From NCBI RefSeq assembly GCF_044704955.1, contig NC_091982.1, positions 166,904,001 to 166,968,000 of the forward strand: 64,000 nucleotides of DNA, in the 5' to 3' direction. Within the stretch, counting starts at the first letter, position 1, and the number at the start of each line of letters is the position of its first letter. The notes beneath the pieces are model-generated. The model had not been told where the DNA came from, did no database searches, and saw only the letters and a list, made by a program, of their open reading frames with translations. A program made the position numbers and the translations under genes. The stretch comes from Pristiophorus japonicus (Eukaryota). Shown in pieces: positions 16,872 to 62,157 of this stretch.

Positions 16872-18185
16872 CTATATGCCTCCATGGACCCTTTCATGCA
16901 GTCTACAGGGGGGCGGGAGCATGGCTTCAGCGTCAGCCTGAATGTCTGGGCCGATGTCAGCGTCCACCTCCTCGTCCTCCTCTTCCTCGCTCTGGTGAGT
17001 TGGACTGTCAGACTCATCAGGCAATTCTTGTCCCCTCCCGATAGCCAAGTTGTGTAGCATGGAGCACACCACCACGAATTGAGCTACCTGCTCAGGGTGG
17101 TATTGGAGCTTGCCTCCTGAGTGGGGTGGTTCTCCTATGCTTTTTGGAAATAGGAGGTGGGTGGGGGGCACACATCTACCTCCATGGCACGAACCTGGTA
17201 TTGCAGTACTTCCAGGAACGGTGCAGTGGCTCTAGGCCTTTTGGCTAAGAGCATTGGCGCAGAGTGATCCTTGAATGGGCCCAAGGTGACCTCTGGCGTT
17301 TGTGATCTGACAAGTTGATCTGACAAAGAATTGGAAAAGATTGGCAACGAATAAATAAAATAAAAAAATAAAAAAAATCTAAAGCGCTGCTTCAGCACTC
17401 CAATGGTTTTCTCCACGATATTGCGAGTTGCTCTGTGGCTCTCATTTATCGCCTCTCGGACTCAGTGTGGGTGTCACGCGGGGGGTCATCAGCCAGGTGG
17501 CGAAGCCATATCCTTTGTCACCAAGCATCCAGCATTGACCTTGTGGCTCATTGTTAAACAAGTCAGATACAGTGCTCTCATGCAGGATGTGAGCATCATG
17601 GATGCTGCCCAGATATTGAGCATTCACTGCCAGTATAATTTGTTGGTGGTCGACAATCAGTTGGACTTTCAGGGTATGGAATCCCTTGCAGTTCCTGAAA
17701 ACCTCAGCATCCTGAAAAGGTGCCCGCATCGCGATGTGCGTACAGTCTATTGCTCCCTGCATCTTAGGAAAGTTTGCATTTCTAGATAATCCTAGAGCCC
17801 TCTCACTCTGTGCCTCCCTGGTCATAGGGAAGCTGATCAAGTCCCTCTTGCGTGCGTACAGGGCTTCAGTAACCTTTCTAATGCAGCGATGTGTGGCATG
17901 CTGAGAAAGTCCGTAAATGTCGCCAGCTGTGGCCTGAAAAGAACCCGAGGCATCGAACGACAATGCCGCGGTGACTTTGACATCGACGGACAGTGCAGTA
18001 CTGGTGGTGCTTGCAGGCTTCAGATTTGCCCTTATCAGTTGGCATACCTCATTGATAACCTCTTTGTGGAAGTGCAGTCTCCGAAGGCAGGTGGTGTCGG
18101 GCAAGTCGAGGGTAAGAATGCTTCTCCTTGTGGGGGTGTAATGACTGGTCCTCCTCAACTGTCTGTCACTTCGTACATTGGGCAC
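16872..18185 (-). pseudogene. Harbinger/HARBI1-like DDE transposase pseudogene
   Basis: GAIDCTHI, NCKGFHTLKVQLIVD, GSIHDAHIL, WMLGDKGY, EKTIGVLKQRFR, LQY.P..V...VVCSMLHNLA and an acidic tail. Frameshifted and split by the 17125-17377 insert. Confidence 0.92.
17125..17377 (+). mobile_element. Polyadenylated retroposed insert containing permuted U2 snRNA-derived modules
   Basis: TTTTTGGA at 17141; ACCTGGTATTGCAGTACTTCCAGGAACGGTGCA at 17193-17225 (U2 3' stem-loop IV); GGCCTTTTGGCTAAGA at 17235-17250 (U2 5' stem-loop I); A-rich tail 17350-17377; it interrupts the transposase frame. Confidence 0.85.
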
Positions 18186-19185
18186 ATAATACTATGGAGC
18201 GTTCCTTCGGCAATGTCGAGTCTGCTGCGTGTATTTGGTCACCAAGAGAGGGTGAGAAAGGACAGGCCCCATTGCAGTAGGTCTCTGTTTTCCACCGATT
18301 GCTCACAAACAAGCAATGTCCCAACGAAGATTCCTCTTCAATTCCAATCGGTCATAGCATGGTCAAGATGTTTTTACAGATGTTCACATCAACTCCAACG
18401 ACCTGCAGAGCACATCCAAACTCCGCCAAGGTTGAAGCACAGCAGCCTTTTAAAGGACGCGACATGTGACCTACAACATGGCGCCCATAACGCTGTGATT
18501 AGTTTCACTTTTTGTGGGCAGTTTTTGGGCGAGCGATATTGTGGGTGATATGTGCGCGAGGTGGTGAAATTAACAATGGGCGATCTCCAAGGCCGCTAGT
18601 TTGAATAAATATGCTCTTTACGACAAAAAACAGTGGAGGGCATTAATACTGAATCTCGCCGTTAATTCCGTGTGGAAAGTAATGCTGGGCGATATTATGG
18701 GTGTTGAATTCGCCCATTTTGTTGATTCCGCCCAAAAAAGTGGGCGGGCAGTAATATTTTTTCTCGGCGTTAAGCACATGGGGAAAGTAACACTCAGCGA
18801 TAAGTTTCCGAAAAATGCCCGAATGGGCGATATCTGGGCATTATGTCATTTCAGTGGTAAAATGGGCATTAAGTGGGCGTTAAGCATGCAAAAAAAGTGG
18901 AGGTTCTAGCCCCTGGAAATCTCGCTGGGGGCACAGTTCTGTGGGTACCAGTCTCCCTTGCCTACCTCTCCTTCATGTGGGAGCCTAGCTACTGAGTGTC
19001 AACAAGTTATTTGACTGAAGGGGCACAACAGCCAATCTGATCACCTAGTCAGGGCACACGTACTTTTAGCAGGGGGCACTGGGCCAGGTATTCCGAGGCC
19101 AATTGTAGCAACCCTTATTGCTGCTCAACTGATGTCAGCTGACAAAGCATAGAACATGTAGCCTGGGATCTTCCTGGTCTGTACT

Positions 19186-21199
19186 TGTGATATATTCAAT
19201 ACCTTGCAAAATCTGGTTCTTCACCCCTTGGAATATGGCAGGGGCGGAAGACACTCCAAACGGTAGCCTATTAAATTGATAAAGGCCTAGATGAGTATTT
19301 ATAGTCAAACATGACTTGGACTCCTCATCTAGTTCAAGCTGTAAATAGGCATTCGTAAGATCCAATTTTGAGAAGATCTGACCACCTGTCAGTGTTGTGA
19401 ACAAATCTTCTATATTCCGCAATGTATTGGGGACATTACCCTCGAGAACCTGGTTTACGGTTACTTTATAATCACCACACAATCTTACCTTACCATCGGA
19501 CTTAGGTACAACAACAATGGGTGTAGCCCAATTATATCGATCTATCTTACAAATAATGTTCTCAGTCTCTAGTCTTTTGAGTTCTCGCTCAACTTTCTCC
19601 TTGAGTGCATATGATATGGAAGGTGGCTTGTAGTAAACCAATCTAGCATCCTTCTGTACCCTGACACTCGCCTTGAAGTCTTGGATCGGACTGCCCGTTT
19701 CGCAGAACACCTTCGGATACTTCTTGATAACCTCACCCGTTGATGAAAATCTCGCTTCCACACAGAAAATCTTACTCCAATCCAGCTTCAATGAGCTCAA
19801 CCAATTTCTTTCTAGTAAGGCAGGCTTGTCTCCTTTCACTACTATTCGAGGCAAGTTCTGAAATTGATCTTTATATTTCACCGGTACGGTGATACGACCT
19901 ACCACAGGAATTTTCTCTCCCGAGTAGCCTCGCAGCTCTATCTTGGATTTCTCCAGTTGAAAATCACGCAATTTGTCGTGATATAGTGACTCCGGTACTA
20001 CACTCACGGATGTACTTGTGTCAATTTCCATTGGTATCTTGAATCCCACAACATCTATGTGGATTTTGATGCTTTTCGAATCGCTGTCCGTTAACCTCGT
20101 GCTCCTGATGACGTGTAACTCTAACATCTCCTCGTCCTGTTGCTGTTCTTCTATGCTATGTAGTCTCTTGGGATTTCTACTCATAGCTTTGAATGCTGGA
20201 CTCATAGCTTTAGAAGCTGGTTTACCCTTCAGTCGGCTTGCCTTCACGTATGGACAACTTTTAGCAATGTGTTGCCCCAGGCACCTATAGCACGACTTCG
20301 ATGCTCTGGTAGAATTTCCATTTTCTGAGACTTTTGGCCATGCCCATCAACCTCGCTGTTTGACAAGCAATCTCAAAAGTCAACTCTTCCGTCGTCAATA
20401 ACTTTCTTCTGATCGCATCATTTTTCACCCAACAAACAAAACGATCCCGTAATGCTCGGTTTTGAAAGTTTCCAAAATTACAGTGCATCGATAGCTTTTT
20501 TAATGCTACAATGTAACCACTGATACTTTCATCAGTCTTTTGATTCCGAATCCCGAAACGATAGCTTTCAGCAATTTCTAACGGTTTGGGGTTATAGTGC
20601 TGCTCCAGCTTCGTTAAAATCTCTTTAAGCGTTGTGTCCTTTGGCTCGTCAGGCACAAGCAGATTTACAAGGGTGTCATATAATGCCGGACCCACCTCCA
20701 ATAAGAAAATCGCTTTCTTACGTTCCAACACAGCCCGGTTCTGCATTGTCTGGAACTTCGATTATGTTATTTGCAATGAAATACATTTCTAGCCGATCCA
20801 CATACGCTTTAAAACATTCCCGGTCATGTCTATATTCTCCCAAATGTCCCAATACACCTGCCATTTTAATCTCTAGCTGTTCACACCGTGTGCTGTATTT
20901 TACCTCAGATTTTTGTAGCTTTTTCCAAAGACAGAAACTTCCAAAGTCTCTCTGTCGGCTGGCTGAATCCTTCACCAACAAAATTTTAAGTTTTAAATCA
21001 TCCGAAAAATCCCATCTTCCTTTGCCAAATGTGATATATTCACAGAGCACAGCACACACAGCTTCCTAACATGGCAGGCAGCTCTCTCGGAAATCTCCGG
21101 AAATCTGCCGAGTTCTGTTTATTATTAATTACTTGCAGTACACAATATGTCCACATCCACAGTGTGGAGCTACAAACATTACAAGCTACAGACATTACA
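19186..21199 (-). mobile_element. Gypsy/Ty3 LTR retrotransposon with a large internal deletion
   Basis: 5' LTR 21030-21199 followed by PBS-like ttggcaaagg; gag 20285-~20865; protease IDTS(T)S and RT N-terminal motifs in ORF 19135-20247; only 13 bp of the 3' LTR left (19186-19198); perfect 5-bp TSD GTACT at 19181-19185 and 21200-21204. Confidence 0.93.
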
Positions 21200-24294: not shown

Positions 24295-27200
24295 TGTAAT
24301 GTATAATCACATGGTTTGTCACATGGTATGAACATGCTCAGTTCGCTCTGGCCTAATAAAACAAGCACATGGACTAGCAACTCATCGTGTCTCTGTCCTT
24401 CAGTTGTTCTACCCACATATATTACATTTTAGCAACAAGATTGGGAAAGAAACAGGATCACCTTTTGTAAAGTCCTTACACAATACCACAAATCCACACA
24501 AGGCACATTCTATGGACAAGGTCACTCTGTGACCTGCACATTTATTCACAGGACCATAAGAAGTGATGACCCTGCGTGGGACCTCCCTTTATATACCTGG
24601 ATGACCAGGTGAGGAGTGTCTCCCACAAGTTCACCCCCTATGGGCAAGGTGTGCATTTCTCAAGTATATACAGTATTGCAGTGTTGTTACATAGAGGTTA
24701 CATACATGACATCACCTCCCTGCCCGCCCCCTCCCCACTGCACTCCAAAGTCTTATTGGGATCAGAGGTTAAGTCTTTTGGGTGGTCTGCGCTCCCTCGT
24801 GCAGCGCCGCAGTTGGGGCTCTGGCTGTTGAGCCTTGGCCTGCGTGTCTGCCCCCTGTGGTGATTCCGGCCTGTCCGGGCTGCCCACAGGGACTGTGCAT
24901 GCTGCTGAATGTTCTTGTTGCTCGTTCACTGGCGGTGGTGTGAATACCATCTCATGATCTTCCTCAAGTTCCTCAGAGTATGCTGAACCTTTTTTTTACT
25001 TGGTCCAGATGCTTGCGGCATATCTGCCCATTGTTAAGTTGAACCACTATGACCCTATTCCCCTCTTTGTCTATTACAGTACCTTCAAGCCATTTGGGCC
25101 CCAAAGCGTGATTGAGAACAAATATGGGGTCACCAATTTCTATACATCTCCCCCTTGAATTACGGTCATGGAATTCATTTTGGGACTGGTGTTTGCCTTC
25201 ACCAATGTCGGACAAGACAGGATGAATGAGGGACAGCGGGGTTTAAATGTACGTTTCATAAGGAGCTCCGCGGGCGGGACCCCCATGAGCGAGTGCGGTC
25301 GGGACCTATAGGCCAGCAGGAGGCACGATAGGCAGCATTGAAGGGAGGGACCTTGAATCCTGAGCATGCTTTGTTTTATGATTTGGACTGCACGTTCCGC
25401 CTGGCCATTGGAGGCCGGCTTGAACGGTGCTGTCTTGACATGGTTGGTGCCATTACCCGACATGAACTCCCGGAATTCGTAGCGAGTGAAACATGGGCTA
25501 TTATCGCTAACAAGAATGTCCGGCAAACCGTAGGTCGCAAAGATCTCATGTAGACTCTACGCACGTAGTGGTGGATGTCGTGCATGAATTCAAAATGATG
25601 CACTCGATCCATTTCGAGTACGCATCAACTACAATAAGAAACATTTTCCCCATGAACGGGCTCGCGTAGTCTACGTGAATTCGTGACCATGGCCTGGTGG
25701 GCCAGGGCCACGGGCTGAGTGGGGCCTCCCTGGGGGCATTTCCCAGCTGAGCACATGTCGTGCACCTGAGAACACAGTGTTCCAGTTCTGAATCAATTCC
25801 CGACCACCAAACCTGTGACCGGGCAATGGCCTTCATCAACACGATGCCTGGGTGCTCGCTGTGGAGTTCCCTGATGAAAGCTTCCCTGCCCCTCTTAGGC
25901 ATGACTACCCGGCTGCCCCATAGTAGGCAGTCGGCTTGGATGTAGAGCTCATCCATCCGCCTGTGAAACGGTCTGACTTCCTCAGGGAATGTTCCGTGTG
26001 CGGGCGCCCAATCCCCAGTCAGGACACATTTCTTAATCAAAGATAGGAGGGGATCTCTGTTGGTCCAGATTTTGATCTGGCGGGCTGTGAAGGGTGAACC
26101 TGCGCTGTCAAAGGCTTCAACGGCCATGACCATCTCAGCGCTTTGCTCCGCTGTACCCTCAGTGGTGGCCAGTGGAAGCCTGCTGAGCGCGTCAGCGCAA
26201 TTTTCAGTGCCGGGCCGGTGCCGGATGGAGTAATCATACGCAGCCAGCGTGAGAGCCCAGCGCTGTGAGCTGACGCATTGGCATTGACAGCCTTGCTGTC
26301 TGACAACAGGGATGTTAACGGCTTGTGGTTAGTTTCTAATTCGAACCTCCTGCCAAAAAGGTACTGGTGCATCTTTTTCACCCCATAGACACATGCGAGT
26401 GCTTCCTTCTCAACCATCCCATATCCACGTTCTGCTTGAGAGAGCGACCAGGAGGCATGAGCTACAGGTTGGAGTTGCCTCTCAGCAGTGCACTGCTGCA
26501 ACATGCACCCAACCCCATTGGACGATGCATCACATTTTAGAACCAATTTCTTACAGGGGTCGTACAGGGTCAACAACTTATTTGAACAGAGTAGGTTACA
26601 CGCCCGATTGAAAGCCTGTTCTTGACAGTCCCCCCAAAACCAATCGCAACCCTTACACAGGAGCACGTGTAGCGGCTCCAACAATGTGCTTAAGTTCGGC
26701 AGAAAGTTCCCTAAATAGTTCAAGAGTCCCAGGAATGAACGCAACTCCAATGTGTTGCCAGGCCTGGGCGCTCGTCAAATCGCCTCTGTTTTGGATTCGG
26801 TAGGCCGAATCCCATCTGCAGCAACCCTCCTGCCCAGAAACTCGACTTCCGGAGCCAAAAACACACACTTAGGCTTCTTGAGTCGCAGGCCTACCCGGTC
26901 CAGTCGGCGTAGCACCTCTTCCAGGTTGTGGAGTTGTTCCTCGGTGTCCCGACCCATGATGAGGATGTCGTCCTGGAATACAATCATTTCAGGAATGGAT
27001 TTGAGCAGGCTTTCCATGTTTCTTTGAAAGATCGCGGCCGCTGATCAAATGCCAACCGGCACCTGTTGTGTGCATGGTGATTGTGGTCAGTAGTTTGGAT
27101 TCGTCGGCCAGTTCTTGGGTCATGTAGGCTGAAGTGAGGTCCAACTTGGTGAACAGCTTGCCGCCTGCCAGCATGGCCAAAAGATCGTCCGCTCTCGGGA

Positions 27201-29594
27201 GCGGGTATTGGTCTTGTAGTGACACCTGGTTCATAGTGGCCTTGTAGTCGCCACAGATCCTGACCGAGCCATCCGCTTTTAGGACAGGATCAATGGGACT
27301 CGCCCAGTCGCTGAATTCAACAGGCGAGATGATGCCCTCTCTCAGCAGACGGTCGAATTCGCTTTCAATTTTCTCCCGCATCACATACGGCACAGTTCTG
27401 GCTTTGTGGTGCACTGGTCTGGCGTCCGGGGTGATGCGAATCACTACTTTGGTACCTTTGAACATCCCGACGCCAGGTTAGAATAGTGACTCAAATTGCT
27501 GTAGGACCTGTGAGCATGAACTTCGCTCCACAGATGACACTGCGTGCACATCCCCCCATTTCCAGTTCATCTCAGCTAGCCAGCTCCTCCCCAACAGTGC
27601 GGGACCATTGTCCGGGACAATCCAGAGCGGCAGCCTGTTCACTGATCCACTGTGTGTGACAGCCAACATTACACTGCCTAGCACTGGAATGATTTCTTTG
27701 GTGTACGTCCGTAATTGAGTCTCAATGCGTCCTAGTTTGGGTCTGCTGGCTTTGAGTGGCCATAGCTTTTCGAATTGTTGAATACTCATGAGTGACTGGC
27801 TGGCCCCCGTGTCCAGCTCCATGCATACCGGAATGCCATTTAATAGGACCTTCATCATCATAGGTGGCGTTTTGGTATATGAGCTGTGAATGTTTGCCAC
27901 ATGAACCCGCTGAACTTCAGCATCCATTGATTTGCCCCACACGTCATCCTGCCTCGCAGACCCCTCTTCTGGTCCATCCGCCTCATAAAGTAGCCTGGTC
28001 GCAGGCTTCCTGTACATTCTGGCTAAATGGCCAGTGAGGTTACAATTTCTGCAGGCGAACTGTTGAAACCTGCAAGTCCTGGCAGCATGTCTGCTCCCAC
28101 ACCTCCAGCATGAACTGAGATTCCCAGTGTTGTGAACAAAAGAGCTGTGACCAGGCATTCCTCGCTGATTATTCCTTTGACTGCTCTTGAGCAGCCTGTT
28201 AGTGGGTGTCAATGGCCCCATCCCAGAACGCATTGTCCACTGGGATGGCGTAAATGTCCGTTCAGCCTGCCATTTTCTGTGTTGAAAACCTGTTCTGGGG
28301 TGTATTGCTGCCTGGGGTGCGTCGAACTGCCCTTGCCTGCTGCTGAGCTCTGAGTCACGTTTATGATATAGACTCCCTGATCCATCGCCACATTGGAGTC
28401 AGAGTTGCGCGCGTATATTATCTTTGTTTCCTCCTCCCCCGCCATAAAAGTCTGAGCCAACAACGCCGCCGCTTCCAAGGTCAAGTCCTTGGTCTCGATT
28501 AACTTTCTGAAAATCCCGGCATGACCGATGCCCTCAATAAAGAAATCCCTTCGCATCTCCCCCCTGCAGGCGTCTGTGAACTTACAGAGGCTGGCCAAGC
28601 GCCGGAGGTCCGCAACGAAGTCCGGTATGCTCTGTCCTTCCCGACGTCGGTGAGTATAAAATCTGTGTCGGGCCATGCGTATGCTGCTCGCTGGTTTGAG
28701 GTGCTCACTGATTAGCTTGCTGAGCTCTTCAAAGGTTTTGTCCGTCGACTTCTTGGGTGCTCGCAGATCTTTCATGAGCGCGTAAATCTCAGATCCACAG
28801 CTGGTCAGTAGATGAACCCTTCGCTTGTCGGCCGCTGCATCTCCCAGCCAGTCCTTAGTGACAAAGCTCTGCTGGAGCCTTTCAATGAAATCGTCCCAGT
28901 CCTCACCAACACAGTACCGTTCCTCTGTGCTGCCGGTGGCCATTATCGTGGGTCGTTGATTCCCGTTTCTCGTCGTCACTGTAAAGTCCTTACACAATAC
29001 CACAAATCCACACGAGGCACATTCCAGGGACAAAGCCACTCTGTGACCTGCACTTTTATTCACAGGACCAAGAAGTGATGACCCTGCGTGGGACCTTCCT
29101 TTATATACCTGGATGACCAGGTGAGGAGTGTCTCCCACAAGTTCACCCCTTATGGTCAAGGTGTGCAATTCTCAAGTATATAATGTATTGCAGTGTTGTT
29201 ACATGAAGGTTACATACATGACACCTTTGAGTTCAGAACCAAAACAAAACAGCTCGGAAATTGGTTCAACACCAAAACCTTCTGTAAGGAGATCACCTGT
29301 TATTAAACCTATTATTAAACTGGATTTGTAGTTCATTTAAAAGAAAAAAAGCCAGGAGTTTTTGTTATGTGGAACATGTAATGTTGGGAAAGGTGGGACC
29401 ATAGTTGTGTTGTATTTGAGAGGGGAATACATATATTTTATTTGAGGGGGAAAGCAGTGTAATGTATTATCACATGATTTGTCACATGGTTTGGTATGAG
29501 CATGCTCAGTTTGCTCTGGTCTAATAAAGCAGGCACATTGACTAGCAACTCATCGTATCTTTGGCCTTCATTTGTTCTACCCACGTATATAACA
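24295..29594 (+). mobile_element. Miniature non-autonomous LTR element (TRIM-like)
   Basis: Direct repeats 24295-24426 and 29458-29594 with TG..CA ends and AATAAA; purine tract gagggggaaagcag before the 3' repeat; about 270 bp non-coding interior once the nested Gypsy is removed. Confidence 0.82.
24466..29223 (-). mobile_element. Full-length but frameshifted Gypsy/Ty3 LTR retrotransposon (gag-PR-RT-RH-IN)
   Basis: LTRs 24466-24711 and 28980-29223 (about 14 substitutions and one 2-bp indel by eye); TSD CCTTT at 24461-24465 and 29224-29228; PBS-like gtgacgacgag; PPT next to 24712; Zn-knuckle CWRCG/CRNC..GH, LDTGA, FQDD, CDAS, and integrase HHCC and DDE motifs. Confidence 0.96.
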
Positions 29595-42040: not shown

Positions 42041-43571
42041 GAAAACATAGAAACATAGAAACATTGAAACATTGTAAATAGGTGCAGGAGCAGGCCATTC
42101 GGCCCTTCGAGCCTGCACCACCATTCAATAAGATCATGGTTGATCATTCACCTCAGTACCCCTTTCCTGCTTTCTCTCCATACCCCTTGATCCCTTTAGC
42201 CGTAAGGGCCATATCTAACTCCCTCTTGAATATATCCAATGAACTGGCATCAACAACTCTCTGTGGTACAGAATACCCCAGGTTAACAATTCTCTGTGTG
42301 AAGAAGTTTCTCCTCATCTCCATCCTAAATGGCTTACCCCTTACCCTTAGACTGTGACCCCTGGTTCTGGACTTCCCCAACATCAGGAACATTCTTCCTG
42401 CATCTAACCTGTCCAGTCCCGTCAGAATTTTATATGTTTCTAGAGATCCCCTCTCATTCTTCTAAACTCCAGAGAATACAGGCCCAGTCGATCCAGTCTC
42501 TCCTCATATGTCAGTCCTGCCATCCCTGGAATCAGTCTGGTGAACCTTCGCTGCACTCCTTCAATAGCAAGAACGTCCTTCCTCAGATTAGGAGACCAAA
42601 ACTGAATACAATATTCCAGGTGAGGCCTCACCAAGTCCCTGTACAACTGCAGTAAGACCTCCCTGCTCCTATACACAAATCCCCTAGCTATGAAGGCAAA
42701 CATGCCATTTGTCTTCTTCACCACCTGCTGGACCTGCATGCCAACTTTCAATGACTGATGAACTATGACACCCAAGTCTCGTTGCACCTCCCCTTTTCCT
42801 AATCTGCCGCCATTCAGATAATATTCTGCCTTTGTGTTTTTGCCACCAAAGTGGATAACCTCACATTTATCCACATTATACTGCATCTGCCATGCATTTG
42901 CCCACTCACCTAACCTGTCCAAATCACCCTGCAGCCTCTTAGCATCCTCCTCACAGCTCACACTGCCACCCAGTTTAGTGTCATCTGCAAACTTGGAGAT
43001 ATTACACTCAATTCCTTCATCCAAATCATTAATGTATACTGTAAAGAGCTGGGGTCCCAGCACTGAGCCCTGCGGCACTCCACTAGTCACTGCCTCCCAT
43101 TCCGAAAAGGACCCGTTTATCCCAACTCTCTGCTTCCTGTCTGCCAACCAATTCTCTATCCACGTCAGTATATTACCCCCAATACCATGTACTTTAATTT
43201 TGCACACCAATCTCTTATGTGGGACCTTGTCAAAGGCCTTTTGAAAGTCCAAATACACCACATCCACTGATTCTCCCTTGTCCACTCTACTAGTTACATC
43301 CTCAAAAATTTCCAGAAGATTTGTCAAGTATGATTTCCCTTTCATAAATCCATGCTGGCTTGGATCGATCCTGTCACTGCTTTCCAAATGCGCTGCTATT
43401 TCATCTTTAATAATTGAATCCAACATTTTCCCCACTACTGATGTCAGGTACCAACATTTTCCCCACTACTGATGTCAGGTACCAATATTTTCCCCACTAC
43501 TGATGTCAGGTACCAACATTTTCCCCACTACTGATGTCAGGTACCAACATTTTCCCCACTACTGATGTCAG
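42041..43571 (-). mobile_element. 5'-truncated CR1 LINE with an open 331-aa RT segment, inserted in Gypsy gag
   Basis: ORF 42440-43435 with [19 protein letters not shown] and FADDTK; (gaaacat)n tail. Confidence 0.96.
43420..43571. repeat. 31-bp tandem repeat, ~4.9 copies, at the CR1 5' junction
   Basis: Unit ccaacattttccccactactgatgtcaggta starting at 43420, 43451, 43482, 43513 and 43544. Confidence 0.97.
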
Positions 43572-53145: not shown

Positions 53146-54412
53146 TAAACGTGATCAGGACTGGCAGACAAGTTACCCTCAGGCCCACCCCCTTCTTGCT
53201 CACTATTCTTTTTGTTAGGAATCTCAAGGTGAATCTTTTTAAAACTGGAAGTTACTTTACATTGTTCAAAATGGTAATTTTTGCAGCAACATCAAAAAAA
53301 AAGAATTGCAATTAATCATCCTATTGAAGGAAGAACGTTTCAAGGCATTATTAGCAACTCAGAAGGTGCCAACGTGTCAGTTTCTATATTTGTTTTGCCA
53401 TACAGCAATTTGCATTTATATAATTCCTCTATCGTAGGAAAATCTCCCAAGTCACAATAGCTTTGAGTATATAAGAACATAAGAGTAGGCCATACGGCCC
53501 CTCGAGCCTGCTCCACTATTCAATAAGATCATGGCTGATGTTCAACCTTAACCTTACTTTTCGTCCCTATCCCCATATCCCTTGATTTCCTTGGAGTCCA
53601 AAAATCTATCTACCTCAGTTTTGAAGCTACTCAACAACTGAGCATCCACAACCCTCTGGGGGAGAGAATTCCAAAGATTCATAATCCTCTGAATGAAGAA
53701 ATCTCTCCTCATCACAGTCTTAAAAGGCCAACCCCTTATCCTGAGTCAACGTCCCCTAGTTCTGGACTCTCCAGCCAGGGGATGCAGTCTCTCAGCAACT
53801 ACCATGTTAGTCATTCTGTTGCGTGAGGAAGGATACATAAACGCAAGTTGTTATTGGAAGAGACGTCCACACATGTCCACTTTCCAGTCCAAGTCACTGG
53901 ATTATTTTCCCAGGCGATCTGCTACCAAATCCCACACCTCGCAATGCCATTCCTAACTCAACACAGAACAGAAATCAAATCGGGCACTCCCTGGTCTGTA
54001 TGACGCAGTTACATGCCCGCCTTTGCCATCTGGAAGGCTGAACCCCAATGCTGCTAGAGTCAGCACTTCCAGCATTCAGATTATTAACACTTTGCCAGCA
54101 GGTGCCTCCTGACCTGGCCAGTTATACAGATCATAAACCTCAGTAGTAGAAGGAAGATTTTGCTGGGAATGCCATATTTAGGACCTGTTTTTAAAAAGCA
54201 ACAGTAGAATATTGCACTGTGCAGCAACACTAATCAGTTCAAGGAACTCTTAGGTACAAAGGTGCATAGCAAGTGACCATTGCTGCTGGAGGACCCACCT
54301 TGAGACCTTAAAAGAAACAACAATTCCATCTGTTCAGGGTGGATTGGCCCCACTGTTTTATTCCTTCATGCCAAGACTCCCTGCCCAACATAATAGAAGC
54401 AAAGGTACTTAC

Positions 54413-55073
54413 GTTGGCAGGTATCTCTCTTCTCCTCATATCCTGGTTTGCAGACACATCGTCCAATAGGCACCAACCATCCCCCATCGGCACTACAGTG
54501 CATTTTAGGCACATCATATTCCTCAGAATTATTCACACAGGAGCCACGGACCTCGACCAGGGAGGAGTCTCCTTCAGTCACTCTGTCTGGAAACTCTGCC
54601 AGGTTACGAACTGTTAATGGGCACTTCTTGTAGTAGACCCTCACTGATACCAAAGCGATACAGGCGCCCACATCCTGAAAGGCCAGGTAAAAGCCTTTCT
54701 TTGTCAGGGATCCAATGTCCCGTACCTCGGTGTTTAATTTCATCACCCTGTCACCTACATCCACCTGGGTGAAGCTCTCATCAGCAGCAATCGTGTCGAT
54801 CTTTATGTATTGACTTTCTTTAATGTACCACAAGTTGTTGTTGTTGGACTCATAATAGTAGATGTTAAAGGTCTCCTTGCATGTTCCTGGCACACCCGGC
54901 AGGCTGTTGCAGTCTCTGAGAGTAAATTTAATCTCAATATAGATCCGATGGGCGCCATCACGGGGAATCCAACTAGTCCGCAGCCAGTTGTTCTGATAGG
55001 CTTCCATGACATTACAGACCTGGTATGTTCGCATCGGAGTGTTCCTCTCATCCATAACGCTGATTTCTTCCCA
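54413..55073 (-). CDS. epha4l: Internal coding exon (large 'exon 3') of an EphA4-like ephrin type-A receptor tyrosine kinase; ligand-binding domain plus sushi/Cys-rich region
   Basis: Translates [33 protein letters not shown]...[20 protein letters not shown]...[11 protein letters not shown]...[26 protein letters not shown]...[16 protein letters not shown]...CQ, typical EphA motifs. Minus-strand acceptor tctatttcttgattacag|TGG, donor CAAC|gtaagt. 661 bp, phase 0 to 1. The EphA call is firm; the paralog (epha4l/ek1 versus EPHA4) rests on remembered diagnostic residues. Confidence 0.93.
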
Positions 55074-55799
55074 CTGTAATCAAGAAATAGAGCAACAGTA
55101 AGAGCCGATAGTAGCTACAAACGCCAAATAATTATGTAGGGCTTCCGCTATCTTTCACAACACGGTGAGGAATGAGTGATTCTGACAACAGCAGACATGT
55201 TTTTGTACATTATAGGAAGTCTGTGTGCTGGATGCAGGCTCGATCCCATATCGGCTCATAAGGTATTTCTATATTATATCTTTACTCATGAAATTTAATG
55301 CAGGTTAAGTATGGCAAGTTAATGTGATTTCTGGCAAGATTTTTTTTGCTCTTTGTGGGGCGGAGTGGGGAATTTTAGGAGATTAAGTGCACAATGCTGT
55401 CTGAAGTTACTACATGTTACATTGGAATAGAAATGATCTCCTGGTTCTGATATTTGGATGCCCCCATGGCGTTTGAATAGAGGCTAACCAAATTATGGAT
55501 GTTTTGAAGGGCAATGGTGACTATTTATAGGCAGATCTCAAGGAATGTGACTGTACAGCTGTAATGGTTGGCCTAGATTTTCTGCTGGAGTTATGCTGGA
55601 CATAGAATACATCTCCTCTAGTATGAGCACACATATTCCAATTGCATGCAAATGAAGAGAATACATCATTCAACATGTTTCCTATCATTTGCGCCCTAGC
55701 AATGCAAATACATCCCAGTGCAACTATAAGGCCTTCTAGACCAGGAATAACATGTGGAACATCATATTTTATGTTTCATAAAGTTGGAAAAATGATCTT

Positions 55800-59198: not shown

Positions 59199-61484
59199 CA
59201 GATTGCACGTCCGAAATCCGGAAACCTCGGGAAAAAGGCCGTTCCGGATTCCACGTATTTCCGAATTTTCGAACGTCTTTGCCTGGGCCGAGGTAGGTGG
59301 GGTCGGGCAGCCGTGGTAAGGGGGTGAGGTCGGCCTGCCGAGGTGGGGGGGAGCTAGGGCCGGGATGAGGTTGGGCCACCAAGGGTCGGGACGAGGTAGG
59401 GCCGGAGCGTGGTCGGGCCACTGAGGACTGGGGCGAGGTTAGGCCGCCGAGGGCCGGAGCAAGGGAGGGCCGGGACGAGGTCAGGCCTCTGAGGGCCGGG
59501 ACGAGGTCGGGCCTCTGAGGACCGGGGCGAGGTCAGGCCGCCGAGGGCCAGGGTGAGGTAGGGCCACCAAGGGCCGGGACGAGGTCGGGCTGCCGAGGGC
59601 CGGAGCGAGGTCGGGCTGCCGAGGACCGGGGCGAGGTCAGGCCTCTGAGGGCCGGGGCGAAGTCGGGCCAGAGCGTGGTCGGGCCACCGAGGACTGGGGC
59701 GAGGTTAGGCTGCCGAGGGCCAGGGTGAGGTCGGGCTGCCGAGGGCTGGAGCAAGGGAGGGCCTGGACGAGGTCAGGCCTCTGAGGGCCGGGGCGAGGTC
59801 GGGCCGGGGCGAGGTCAGGCCTCTGCGGGCCGGGACGAGGTCGGGCCGGGGCAAGGTAGGGCCGGAGCGAGGTCGGGCCGGGGCGAGGTAGGGCCGGAGC
59901 GTGGTCGGGCCGCCGAGAGCCGGGGCGAGGTCAAGCCTCTGAGGGCCGGGGCGAAGTCGGGCCGCCGTGGGCCGGGGCAAGGTCGGGCCGCCGAGGGCCG
60001 GGGCGAGGTCGGGCCGCCGAGGGCCGGGGCGAGGTCGGGCCGCCGAGGGCCGGGGCGAGGTCGGGCCGCCGAGGGCCGGAGCGGGGTCGGGCCGCCGAGG
60101 GCCGGGGCGAGGTCGGGCCGCCGAGGGCCGGGTCGAGGTCGGGCCGGAGCGAGGTCGGGCTGCCGAGGGCTGGAGCGAGGTCGGGCCGGAGCGAGGTCGG
60201 GCCGCCGAGGGCTGGAGCGAGGTCAGGTCGCCGAGGCGAGGTCGGGCCGGAGCGAGGTCGAGCTGCCGAGGGCCGGGGTGAGGTTGGGCCAGAGCGAGGT
60301 CGGGCTGCCGAGGGCCGGGGTGAGGTTGGGCCGGAGCGAAGTCGGGTCGCCGAGGGCCGGGGTGAGGTTGGGCCGGAGCGAGGTCGGGTCGCCGAGGGCC
60401 GGGGTGAGGTCGGGCCGGAGCGAGGTCGGGTCGCCGAGGGCCGGGGTGAGGTCGGGCCGAGCGGTCGGCCGAGGGCCGGGGTGAGGTCGGGCCGGAGCGA
60501 GGTCGGGCCGGAAGGGCTGGGAGCGAGGTCGGGCCGGAGCGAGGTCGAGCTGCCGAGGGCCGGGGTGAGGTTGGGCCAGAGCGAGGTCGGGCTGCCGAGG
60601 GCCGGAGCGAGGTCGGGTCGCCGAGGCGAGGTCGGGCCGGAGCGAGGTCGGGCCGCCGAGGGCCGGAGCGAGGTCGGGTCGCCGAGGCGAGGTCGGGCCG
60701 GAGCGAGGTCGGGCCGCCGAGGGCCGGAGCGAGGTCGGGCCGCCGAGGGCTGGAGCGAGGTCGGGTCGCCGAGGTGAGGTCGGGCCGGAGCGAGGTCGAG
60801 CTGCCGAGGGCCGGGGTGAGGTTGGGCCAGAGCGAGGTCGGGCTGCCGAGGGCCGGAGCGAGGTCGGGTCGCCGAGGCGAGGTCGGGCCGGAGCGAGGTC
60901 GGGCCGCCGAGGGCCGGAGCGAGGTCGGGTCGCCGAGGCGAGGTCGGGCCGGAGCGAGGTCGAGCTGCCGAGGGCCGGGGTGAGGTTGGGCCAGAGCGAG
61001 GTCGGGCTGCCGAGGGCCGGGGTGAGGTCGGGCCGGAGCGAGGTCGGGCTGCCGAGGGCCGGGGTGAGGTTGGGCCGGAGCGAGGTCGGGTCGCCGAGGG
61101 CCGGGGTGAGGTCGGGCCGGAGCGAGGTCGGGCTGCCGAGGGCCGGGGTGAGGTTGGGCCGGAGCGAGGTCGGGTCGCCGAGGGCCGGAGCGAGGTCAGG
61201 CCGCCGAGGGCCGGGTCGAGGTCGGGCCGGAGCGAGGTCAGGCCGCCGAGGGCCGGGTCGAGGTCGGGCCGGAGCGAGGTCAGGCCGCCGAGGGCCGGGT
61301 CGAGGTCGGGCCGGAGCGAGGTCAGGCCGCTGAAAGCGAGGGCGAAGTCGGATCGTCGAGGCGGGGGGAGTCCAGATTTCAGAACTTATTTCGGTTTCCG
61401 GACAACCCTGCCATGGATCAGCCCGGTGTCCGGATTCCAGAACATTCCAAATTTTGGAACTCCGGATTTCGGACGCTCAAACTT
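59199..61484. mobile_element. Tc1/mariner-type (pogo/Tigger-like) MITE
   Basis: 23-bp TIRs cagattgcacgtccgaaatccgg / ccggatttcggacgctcaaactt; TA TSD at 59197-59198 and 61485-61486. Confidence 0.88.
59284..61345. repeat. GC/CpG-rich compound minisatellite inside the MITE
   Basis: Built from a 16-mer gggccgg(a/g)g(c/t)gaggtc and a 10-mer gggccgccga, giving 26-bp and 42-bp periods. Confidence 0.95.
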
Positions 61485-62157
61485 TATGCAGGTACAGCAA
61501 GTAATCAGGAAGTCAAATAGAATGTTGGCCTTTATTGCAAGGGGGATGGAGTATAAAAGCAGAGAAGTCCTGCTACACTGTACAGTGTATTGGTGAGGCC
61601 ACACCTGGAGCACTGCGTGCAGTTTTGGTCTCCGTATTTAAGGAGGGATATACTTGCATTGGACGCAATTTAGAGAAGGTTCACTAGGTTGATTCCTGAG
61701 ATGAAGGGGATGACTTATGAAGAAAGGTTGAGATGATTGGGCCTGTACTCACTGGAGTTCAGAAGAATGAGAGGTGATCTTATTGAGACATATAAGATAA
61801 TGAAGGGGCTCAACAAGGTAGATGCAGAGAGGATATTTCCACTCATAAGGAAATCTAGAACTCGGGGTCGCCCATTTAAAACTGAGATGAGGAGGAATTT
61901 CTTCTCTCAGAGGCTTGTAAATCTGTGGAATTCTCTGCCGCAGAGAGCTGTGGAAGCTGGGTCATTGAATATATTTAAGGCAGAGATAGACATATTTTTG
62001 AACGATAAGTGAGTCAAAGGTTATGGGGACCAGGCAGGGAAATGGAGCTGAGCCCATGATCACATCAGCCATGATCTTATTGTATGGCAGAGCAGGCTTG
62101 AGGGGCCAAATGACCTACTCCTGCTCCTATTTCTTATGTTTTTATGTTCTTATAATG

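Follow-up and report, generated by a model that had tools for sequence, protein, structure and literature searches.

What is an A-tailed piece of U2 small nuclear RNA (snRNA) sequence, its parts seemingly out of order, doing inside a transposase gene, and how could such an element be transcribed and moved? The question is raised by positions 17125-17377 of a 64,000-nt stretch of the Pristiophorus japonicus genome (hereafter, the window; contig NC_091982.1, positions 166,904,001 to 166,968,000). An earlier note on this DNA described six motifs at the locus, all of which are found where it placed them, and read them as a retroposon with permuted U2 modules. We assign the element, with near certainty, to a family of SINEs derived from both U2 and U1, of which the window holds a truncated copy with the following parts and flanks.

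16902..17124, minus strand: host Harbinger-type transposase, C-terminal part (translation; no separate Pfam match)
17125..17377, plus strand: SINE copy of subfamily A1, 5'-truncated, spanning element position 92 through the poly(A) tail
17125..17135, plus strand: end of the second U1-derived fragment, U1 37-47, the 3' strand of U1 stem-loop I (11/11 against this genome's U1)
17138..17148, plus strand: degenerate Sm-site region with C where U2 has A, aligned with this genome's U2 97-119 (Rfam alignment)
17153..17183, plus strand: hairpin at the position of U2 stem-loop III, interior remodelled (Rfam alignment, fold)
17187..17226, plus strand: U2 stem-loop IV; U2 153-186 = 17193-17226, 32/34 (Rfam alignment)
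17231..17256, plus strand: second U2 5' segment, that is, stem-loop I (U2 7-29) and an eroded remnant of U2 30-38
17257..17298, plus strand: tail hairpin (fold), non-snRNA, an expanded version of the short tail hairpin of a sister family
17299..17349, plus strand: remainder of the family-specific tail (alignment)
17350..17377, plus strand: A-rich tail (sequence)
17378..18191, minus strand: host Harbinger-type transposase, N-terminal part (DDE_Tnp_4, E 3e-19 for 17442-18191)

A U2/U1-derived SINE family

With this genome's own U2 gene as the reference, both U2 matches in the window exceed chance, the 3' end at 32/34 (E 4e-12) and the 5' segment, U2 7-29 at 17231-17253, at 21/23 (E 4e-6). The spacer between them is 4 nt rather than 9 nt, the 11-bp hairpin consists, as read from the sequence, of 9 Watson-Crick and 2 G-U pairs, and the Sm-site-like motif is in place but degenerate. 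The hairpin that follows the second 5' segment is non-U2 as described, its similarity to U1, U2 and the LINE discussed below not rising above that of shuffled sequences; the U1-derived 17125-17135 had been overlooked. The Sm site, stem IIa, loop IV and branch-point pairing are the U2/U1 elements with known roles. A functional U2 variant gene should have a promoter, a 3' box, stem IIa, an Sm site and the branch-point pairing sequence; the window copy does not qualify as one, since it lacks the 5' half of U2 and combines an A-tail with a degenerate Sm site inside a transposase. The Rfam search of the window yields no match at the gathering level, only a weak one to U2 101-185 at 17141-17224 (22.6 bits, E 0.052), and the plus strand of the element is predicted to fold more stably than shuffles (z -2.93). 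At two positions, loop IV (17187-17226) differs from both types of U2 gene in the genome and agrees with the Rfam consensus, such that its donor may have been another or an older U2 variant.

A 27-mer specific to the family (second U2 segment plus tail) has 4,877 exact matches in the genome, a lower bound on copy number, compared to none for the control. Among 2,228 first-look candidates in the 5.9-Gb genome, 45 matches were scored, at 87-100%; a run search with family words listed no RNA run, and 5 of 24 rows contained at least half of the words, all from one organism, with small fractions in others. The full element is non-coding and comprises about 320-345 nt plus the A-tail, in the order U2 1-35, U1 3-57, U1 28-47, degenerate Sm site, stem-loops III and IV, second U2 5' segment, tail hairpin and A-tail. 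The head matches U2 1-35 at 33/35, the first U1 piece scores 76 (maximum of 500 shuffles, 52), and the second matches U1 28-47 of this genome at 19/20. The window copy is 96.8% identical to positions 92-339 of a full-length copy (L004) and lacks the first 91 nt of the element. In full copies, which begin with U2 nt 1, Rfam detects a collinear U2 1-192 at up to 68 bits, with the U1 match inside. Thus, the permutation is only apparent: 5' truncation removed the first head, and the 5' segment is duplicated.

Module order is constant, and head junctions are fixed within each subfamily; the hairpin at the stem-loop III position carries an internal duplication in subfamilies other than that of the window. 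In a positional sample, 20 of 31 copies begin within U2 nt 1-12 and 10 are truncated beyond nt 35. Target-site duplications (median, 15 nt) flank 41 of 70 copies, the target motif is a loose (A/C)A|T, and most copies lie away from U2-like sites. Taken together, the shared junctions and the target-site duplications show that the family transposes as a unit and is not a sum of chimeras. The earlier suggestion of a multicopy U2-derived retroposon is therefore borne out, in the form of a SINEU-type family with at least 4,877 copies and a fixed module order, which excludes a single-copy sequence. Of the two forms proposed, a SINE or a LINE 3' untranslated region, the stand-alone SINE is the one observed: none of 30 positionally sampled copies continues 5' into LINE sequence, and we saw by eye no long 5' extension shared by full copies. 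Runs of 4-6 T occur in every full copy. The six subfamilies diverge by 0.8-2.4% from the column majority (120 extracted copies, 5 of which were set aside as mis-extracted tandem junctions); the family is young.

The insertion in the window, compared with other copies at the same site, deleted 7 nt of the target and left no target-site duplication. Genome-wide, this Harbinger position is filled at 23 sites and of the empty type at 2,829. All 23 A-tail junctions belong to the SINE (19, by manual reading) or to the sister family (4), with 4 of the 23 filled sites being near-duplicates on one contig; the position is a hot spot common to the two families. At C8:143-148 Mb (L111-L116, L250-L253), near-duplicate loci carry identical SINE insertions, which suggests that this region is segmentally duplicated. 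Within the window, an open frame at 54366-55079 (minus strand) resembles what we take to be an Eph-receptor ligand-binding exon, so that the SINE may lie in or beside an Eph-receptor-like gene. Inspection by eye also revealed broken LTR-retrotransposon-like gag/pol frames and a CR1-like reverse transcriptase (RT) fragment (19135-20346; 25546-29171 and 42440-43465, both on the minus strand), and G+C-rich tandem repeats with long repetitive open frames occupy 59700-61600.

The sister family (L209-L238; 516 exact matches) bears on how the double U2 head arose; its members combine a near-complete U2 with another U2 5' segment and end in a short tail. In its form 2a, the match to the U2 gene lacks about nt 61-69 and reaches nt 196, so that it includes 5 nt of the 3' flank; it gives way to a restart at the U2 5' end that continues to nt 38 without loss of the branch-point pairing sequence, and a related tail follows. 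The sister family keeps the branch-point sequence and has lost part of stem IIa; its first head retains that sequence, as does the first head of subfamily B. In the alignment, the second segment erodes progressively through 2a, 2b, older A1 copies and the window copy. This series indicates that the branch-point pairing sequence, reported missing by the earlier note and indeed missing from the window copy, was lost by later erosion of the second segment and its absence is not an original trait. Given the 2a structure and the erosion series, the ancestor was likely a U2 body joined, via a short microhomology, to a neighboring U2 5' end interrupted at nt 38/39, the Keno site (see below), by a short insertion. 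The join could have occurred by collapse of the spacer in a head-to-tail array or by template switch, and the data fit both; the U1 pieces would have been acquired after the U2-U2 junction. A stand-alone ancestor (U2 1-38 plus tail) was not found among the loci examined. In the sister family the Keno site is preserved, and its copies are often hit by both the main SINE and the LINE.

SINE copies in U2 genes and a Keno-like LINE

The boundary between U2 nt 38 and 39 is the published insertion site of Keno and Utopia (PMC4640811, PMC6136364). Keno, a U2-specific element of the Tx1 clade with an APE endonuclease, was described by Kojima and Fujiwara (2004), as cited in PMC4640811, PMC6136364 and PMC4494074. 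A search for the end of a U2 promoter joined to a SINE head, which covered two promoter types and was blind to subfamily B, returned 25 matches, 18 of them in U2 arrays. In these 18 copies, the upstream sequence of U2 leads straight into the SINE head, which stands in for the U2 5' end, and the tail ends at nt 38/39. Among 128 promoter units, a census limited to the array stretches analyzed, 96 are followed by an intact U2 gene, 17 by a SINE of subfamily D, 12 by a LINE head and 3 by other sequence; 32 of these units thus contain something other than an intact U2 gene. None of the 18 array matches belongs to subfamily A, C or E. Promoter-like letters precede +1, outside the duplication, in 4 of the 7 dispersed matches; these were not counted because the pattern selects for them.

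The two U2 array types (L031 and L059) have unrelated upstream sequences. The tandem type, with units of about 760 bp, contains 17 of the 18 copies; one further D copy lies in the second type, behind its different upstream sequence and likewise in register with +1. The 200 nt upstream of SINE-bearing units show no mismatch to the intact unit in all 11 units checked, and the copy in the second type shows none over 300 nt. A U1-like proximal element is present at the expected place in the second type (rank 2 of 283) and not in the main type (rank 114 of 283), and no octamer was found within 300 nt upstream in either. With no recognizable proximal element in the main type and no octamer in either, the assumption that these promoters are active relies on the intact U2 genes. 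In the C9 array (L059-L060, L131-L133), the repeat units are larger: behind an intact U2 gene come a LINE 3' end, fragments of the sister family and a U2 that lacks its head.

Only 3 distinct sequences were found among 11 array copies examined, which points to few independent insertion events; the array copies may represent about one to three insertions that were spread by array homogenization or duplicated in the assembly. They lie at the tip of the D clade and are matched at 100% by two D copies dispersed outside the arrays, an identity compatible with movement in either direction. Poly(A) joined to U2 nt 39 occurs at 99 places in the genome. The first 30 of these junctions involve the SINE in 22 cases, the sister family in 5 and the LINE in 3, and the 22 SINE junctions lie inside sister-family copies (18), in true U2 genes (2) or in tandem (2). 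One A2 copy occupies the Keno site of a U2 gene but lacks the promoter.

The LINE found at the same site has two open reading frames, of 581 and 1,147 aa, encoding ZCCHC3-like RNA-binding domains, a zinc knuckle, an APE endonuclease, an RT and a zf-RVT domain. It inserts before U2 nt 39 and starts with a U2-like head of its own; four copies are 99.2-99.9% identical, and more than half of the matches (29 of 47) fall outside the array stretches. The closest solved structures are those of L1 ORF2p (E 7e-84). Its protein relatives in amphibians and fish are 37-49% identical, one of them named 'transposon TX1 uncharacterized 149 kDa protein', and a fragment in a shark protein record is 81% identical; no Keno label appears among the relatives found. 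By insertion site and domain content, we classify this LINE as Keno-like.

In one stretch (G000:C19:69610000-69734999, L134), 17 promoter units are occupied by 11 LINE heads, 5 SINEs and 1 intact U2, with LINE-in-LINE insertions at the LINE's own U2-like head; the LINE in this stretch is a candidate active Keno. A second, more divergent LINE 3' end at U2 38/39 (L140, L141) suggests more than one Keno-like subfamily. Two other readings were discarded. Locus L150, considered as a template-switch chimera of LINE head and SINE, proved in full sequence to be a nested insertion in a LINE head with a 17-nt duplication; and the idea that the LINE head is mutated against self-insertion is unsupported because the altered head site still receives insertions (L150 and two LINE-in-LINE junctions).

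The SINE directly follows 11 of 19 dispersed young LINE copies compared to 0 of 30 older related LINE ends, and heads of B, D, E and A/C type are found among the abutting SINEs. No similarity exists between the tail of the SINE and the ends of the LINE. The sharing of both the U2 38/39 site and dispersed sites suggests that the SINE is likely mobilized by a Tx1-clade LINE, in agreement with the Keno/Tx1-type connection drawn in the earlier note.

Proposed source genes and transcription, and rival explanations

In our preferred reading, which we hold with reasonable confidence, this is a young SINE whose source copies likely reside in U2 genes, are transcribed from the U2 promoter and are copied by the Keno-like LINE. 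The LINE endonuclease would nick U2 at 38/39, and SINE RNA would be reverse-transcribed from its A-tail. Since the SINE head is the 5' end of U2 itself, the cDNA could join by homology, replacing the first ~38 nt of the U2 gene in register with the U2 start. RNA polymerase II (Pol II) would then produce SINE RNA from nt +1 of the captured promoter, so that dispersed full copies would begin at or just inside U2 +1. Because the specificity of the LINE is loose, the daughters would mostly land elsewhere, often 5'-truncated like the window copy. Array turnover would have erased the source genes of older subfamilies, for example, that of the window. The fuller version of this scenario, to which we give an even chance, is a promoter-capturing SINE with U2 genes as master loci, concerted spread within the arrays, and a capped, snRNP-like Pol II RNA in which the splicing sequences are disarmed.

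The strongest rival, unlikely on balance, assumes read-through transcription of the SINE from various flanking promoters, with its U2 head renewed by template switching onto U2 snRNA and the array copies as recent dead-end insertions. PMC4494074 proposes just such recurrent template-switch 5' additions and flank-driven transcription for SINEU, and the same direction is indicated by the failure to find promoter-linked copies of subfamilies A, C and E and by the main array type with no recognizable proximal element. Under this explanation, however, the head junctions should vary, whereas they are fixed per subfamily; furthermore, full copies share no long 5' extension as judged by eye, two U2 array types were entered in register with +1, and the youngest clade has the array copies at its tip.

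Less probable than this is the function proposed in the earlier note, a permuted U2 mimic retained because it gains stability or nuclear import by recruiting Sm or U2B''/U2A' proteins. Stem-loops IV and I are, admittedly, fully paired in all 17 aligned copies, full copies are predicted to fold more stably than shuffles (z -3.1 and -5.3), and in every subfamily folded, mutation or predicted pairing affects the branch-point region (predicted unpaired probability of 0.01-0.34 vs 0.80 in U2). Full copies are not permuted, however, and the test of stem covariation found a two-sided change in 1 of 82 pairs, a result reached by 300 of 500 shuffles. Subfamilies A, C and E have lost the A of the Sm site; in D, pairing of this site is predicted. 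In a family that has diverged by so little, invariant stems are expected at 1-2% divergence, and the intact stems are therefore no sign of selection. The U1 piece that pairs with the splice site is likewise mutated and predicted to be paired wherever it is present in the subfamilies folded; the disarming of branch-point and splice-site pairing may reflect selection against poisoning of the spliceosome, or drift.

Marginally less probable still is mobilization by another L1/Tx1-type LINE of loose specificity, with the Keno-like LINE merely sharing A-rich hot spots with the SINE. There are 1,826 matches to a related LINE 3' end, and 30 sampled ends are dispersed, most of them 71-94% identical to the array LINE and several with similar duplications; the SINE and the Keno-like LINE share no tail. 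This alternative fails to account for insertions exactly at U2 38/39 and for the abutment of the SINE to young Keno-like copies but not to their older relatives. A one-off chimeric U2 pseudogene, for which the window copy alone, below the Rfam cut-off, could be mistaken, is rejected and has a negligible probability given the thousands of copies with fixed module order.

Relation to known elements and implications

SINEU-1/2/3 are poly(A) retroposons of crocodilians, with U1/U2-derived heads, and were found nowhere else (Kojima 2015, PMC4494074). Their partner is named Tx1-Mar, a Mariner-targeting element; the available passages of PMC4494074 report no copy inside U2 genes and leave the transcription of SINEU as a question because the U1/U2 promoters lie outside the copied sequence. 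The family described here resembles SINEU in being short (<500 bp), non-coding and polyadenylated, with an snRNA head and repeated 5' additions, a partial duplication within the U1 piece, tandem insertions around a duplicated target, target duplications or deletions, the use of a DNA transposon as a target, and a Tx1 partner that itself has an snRNA-derived head (PMC4494074). It differs in its copies in U2 genes at the Keno site and in its 0.8-2.4% divergence, SINEU having been compared by description. Because the pieces match this genome's own U1/U2 variants, an origin independent of the crocodilian SINEU appears likely. In their available passages, PMC4758252, PMC5786205, PMC5753468 and PMC5381603 mention SINEU solely by citing PMC4494074, and those of PMC13034634 contain SINEUP only and no SINEU.

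The partner LINE resembles Keno in its APE endonuclease, two open reading frames and insertion before U2 nt 39; what sets it apart from Keno as described in the available passages is a U2-like 5' head and insertion at places other than U2 as well. The SINE itself is non-coding. Utopia shares the 38/39 site but has a restriction-like endonuclease in place of the APE type found here (PMC4640811). Similarly to the R2 and R2/R1 SIDEs (PMC3414825), the SINE is non-autonomous, has copies in the target gene of the LINE and would depend on the transcript of that gene. SIDEs, however, are internally deleted LINEs with a ribozyme in rDNA (PMC3414825), whereas the SINE is built of snRNA pieces, is similar to the LINE in the U2 head only, and would use the host start directly. 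With processed U2 pseudogenes and snRNA-L1 chimeras (PMC4494074), it shares a retrotransposed snRNA, an A-tail and a target duplication; those are one-off products according to the passages of that source, unlike the junctions common to thousands of copies here. In the literature searched, which lies outside subscription journals, Repbase and Dfam, we found no SINEU outside crocodilians, no SINE in U2 genes and no non-autonomous partner of Keno.

Thus, the SINEU architecture is known, and what appears to be new is that copies reside within U2 genes, at the insertion site of Keno and next to intact Keno-like LINEs. A single genome appears to preserve the history of the SINE, from a near-complete U2 dimer through erosion to U1 capture. 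Copies in register with the U2 start, beside an intact, young LINE that shares their target and has a similar kind of head, offer a candidate answer, at the level of DNA, to the question of SINEU transcription, and because promoter, SINE and enzyme are all present, this question becomes directly testable. If correct, the proposed scheme would explain how snRNA-headed SINEs are transcribed, would provide the first non-autonomous partner for Keno and would extend SINEU past crocodilians by an independent origin.
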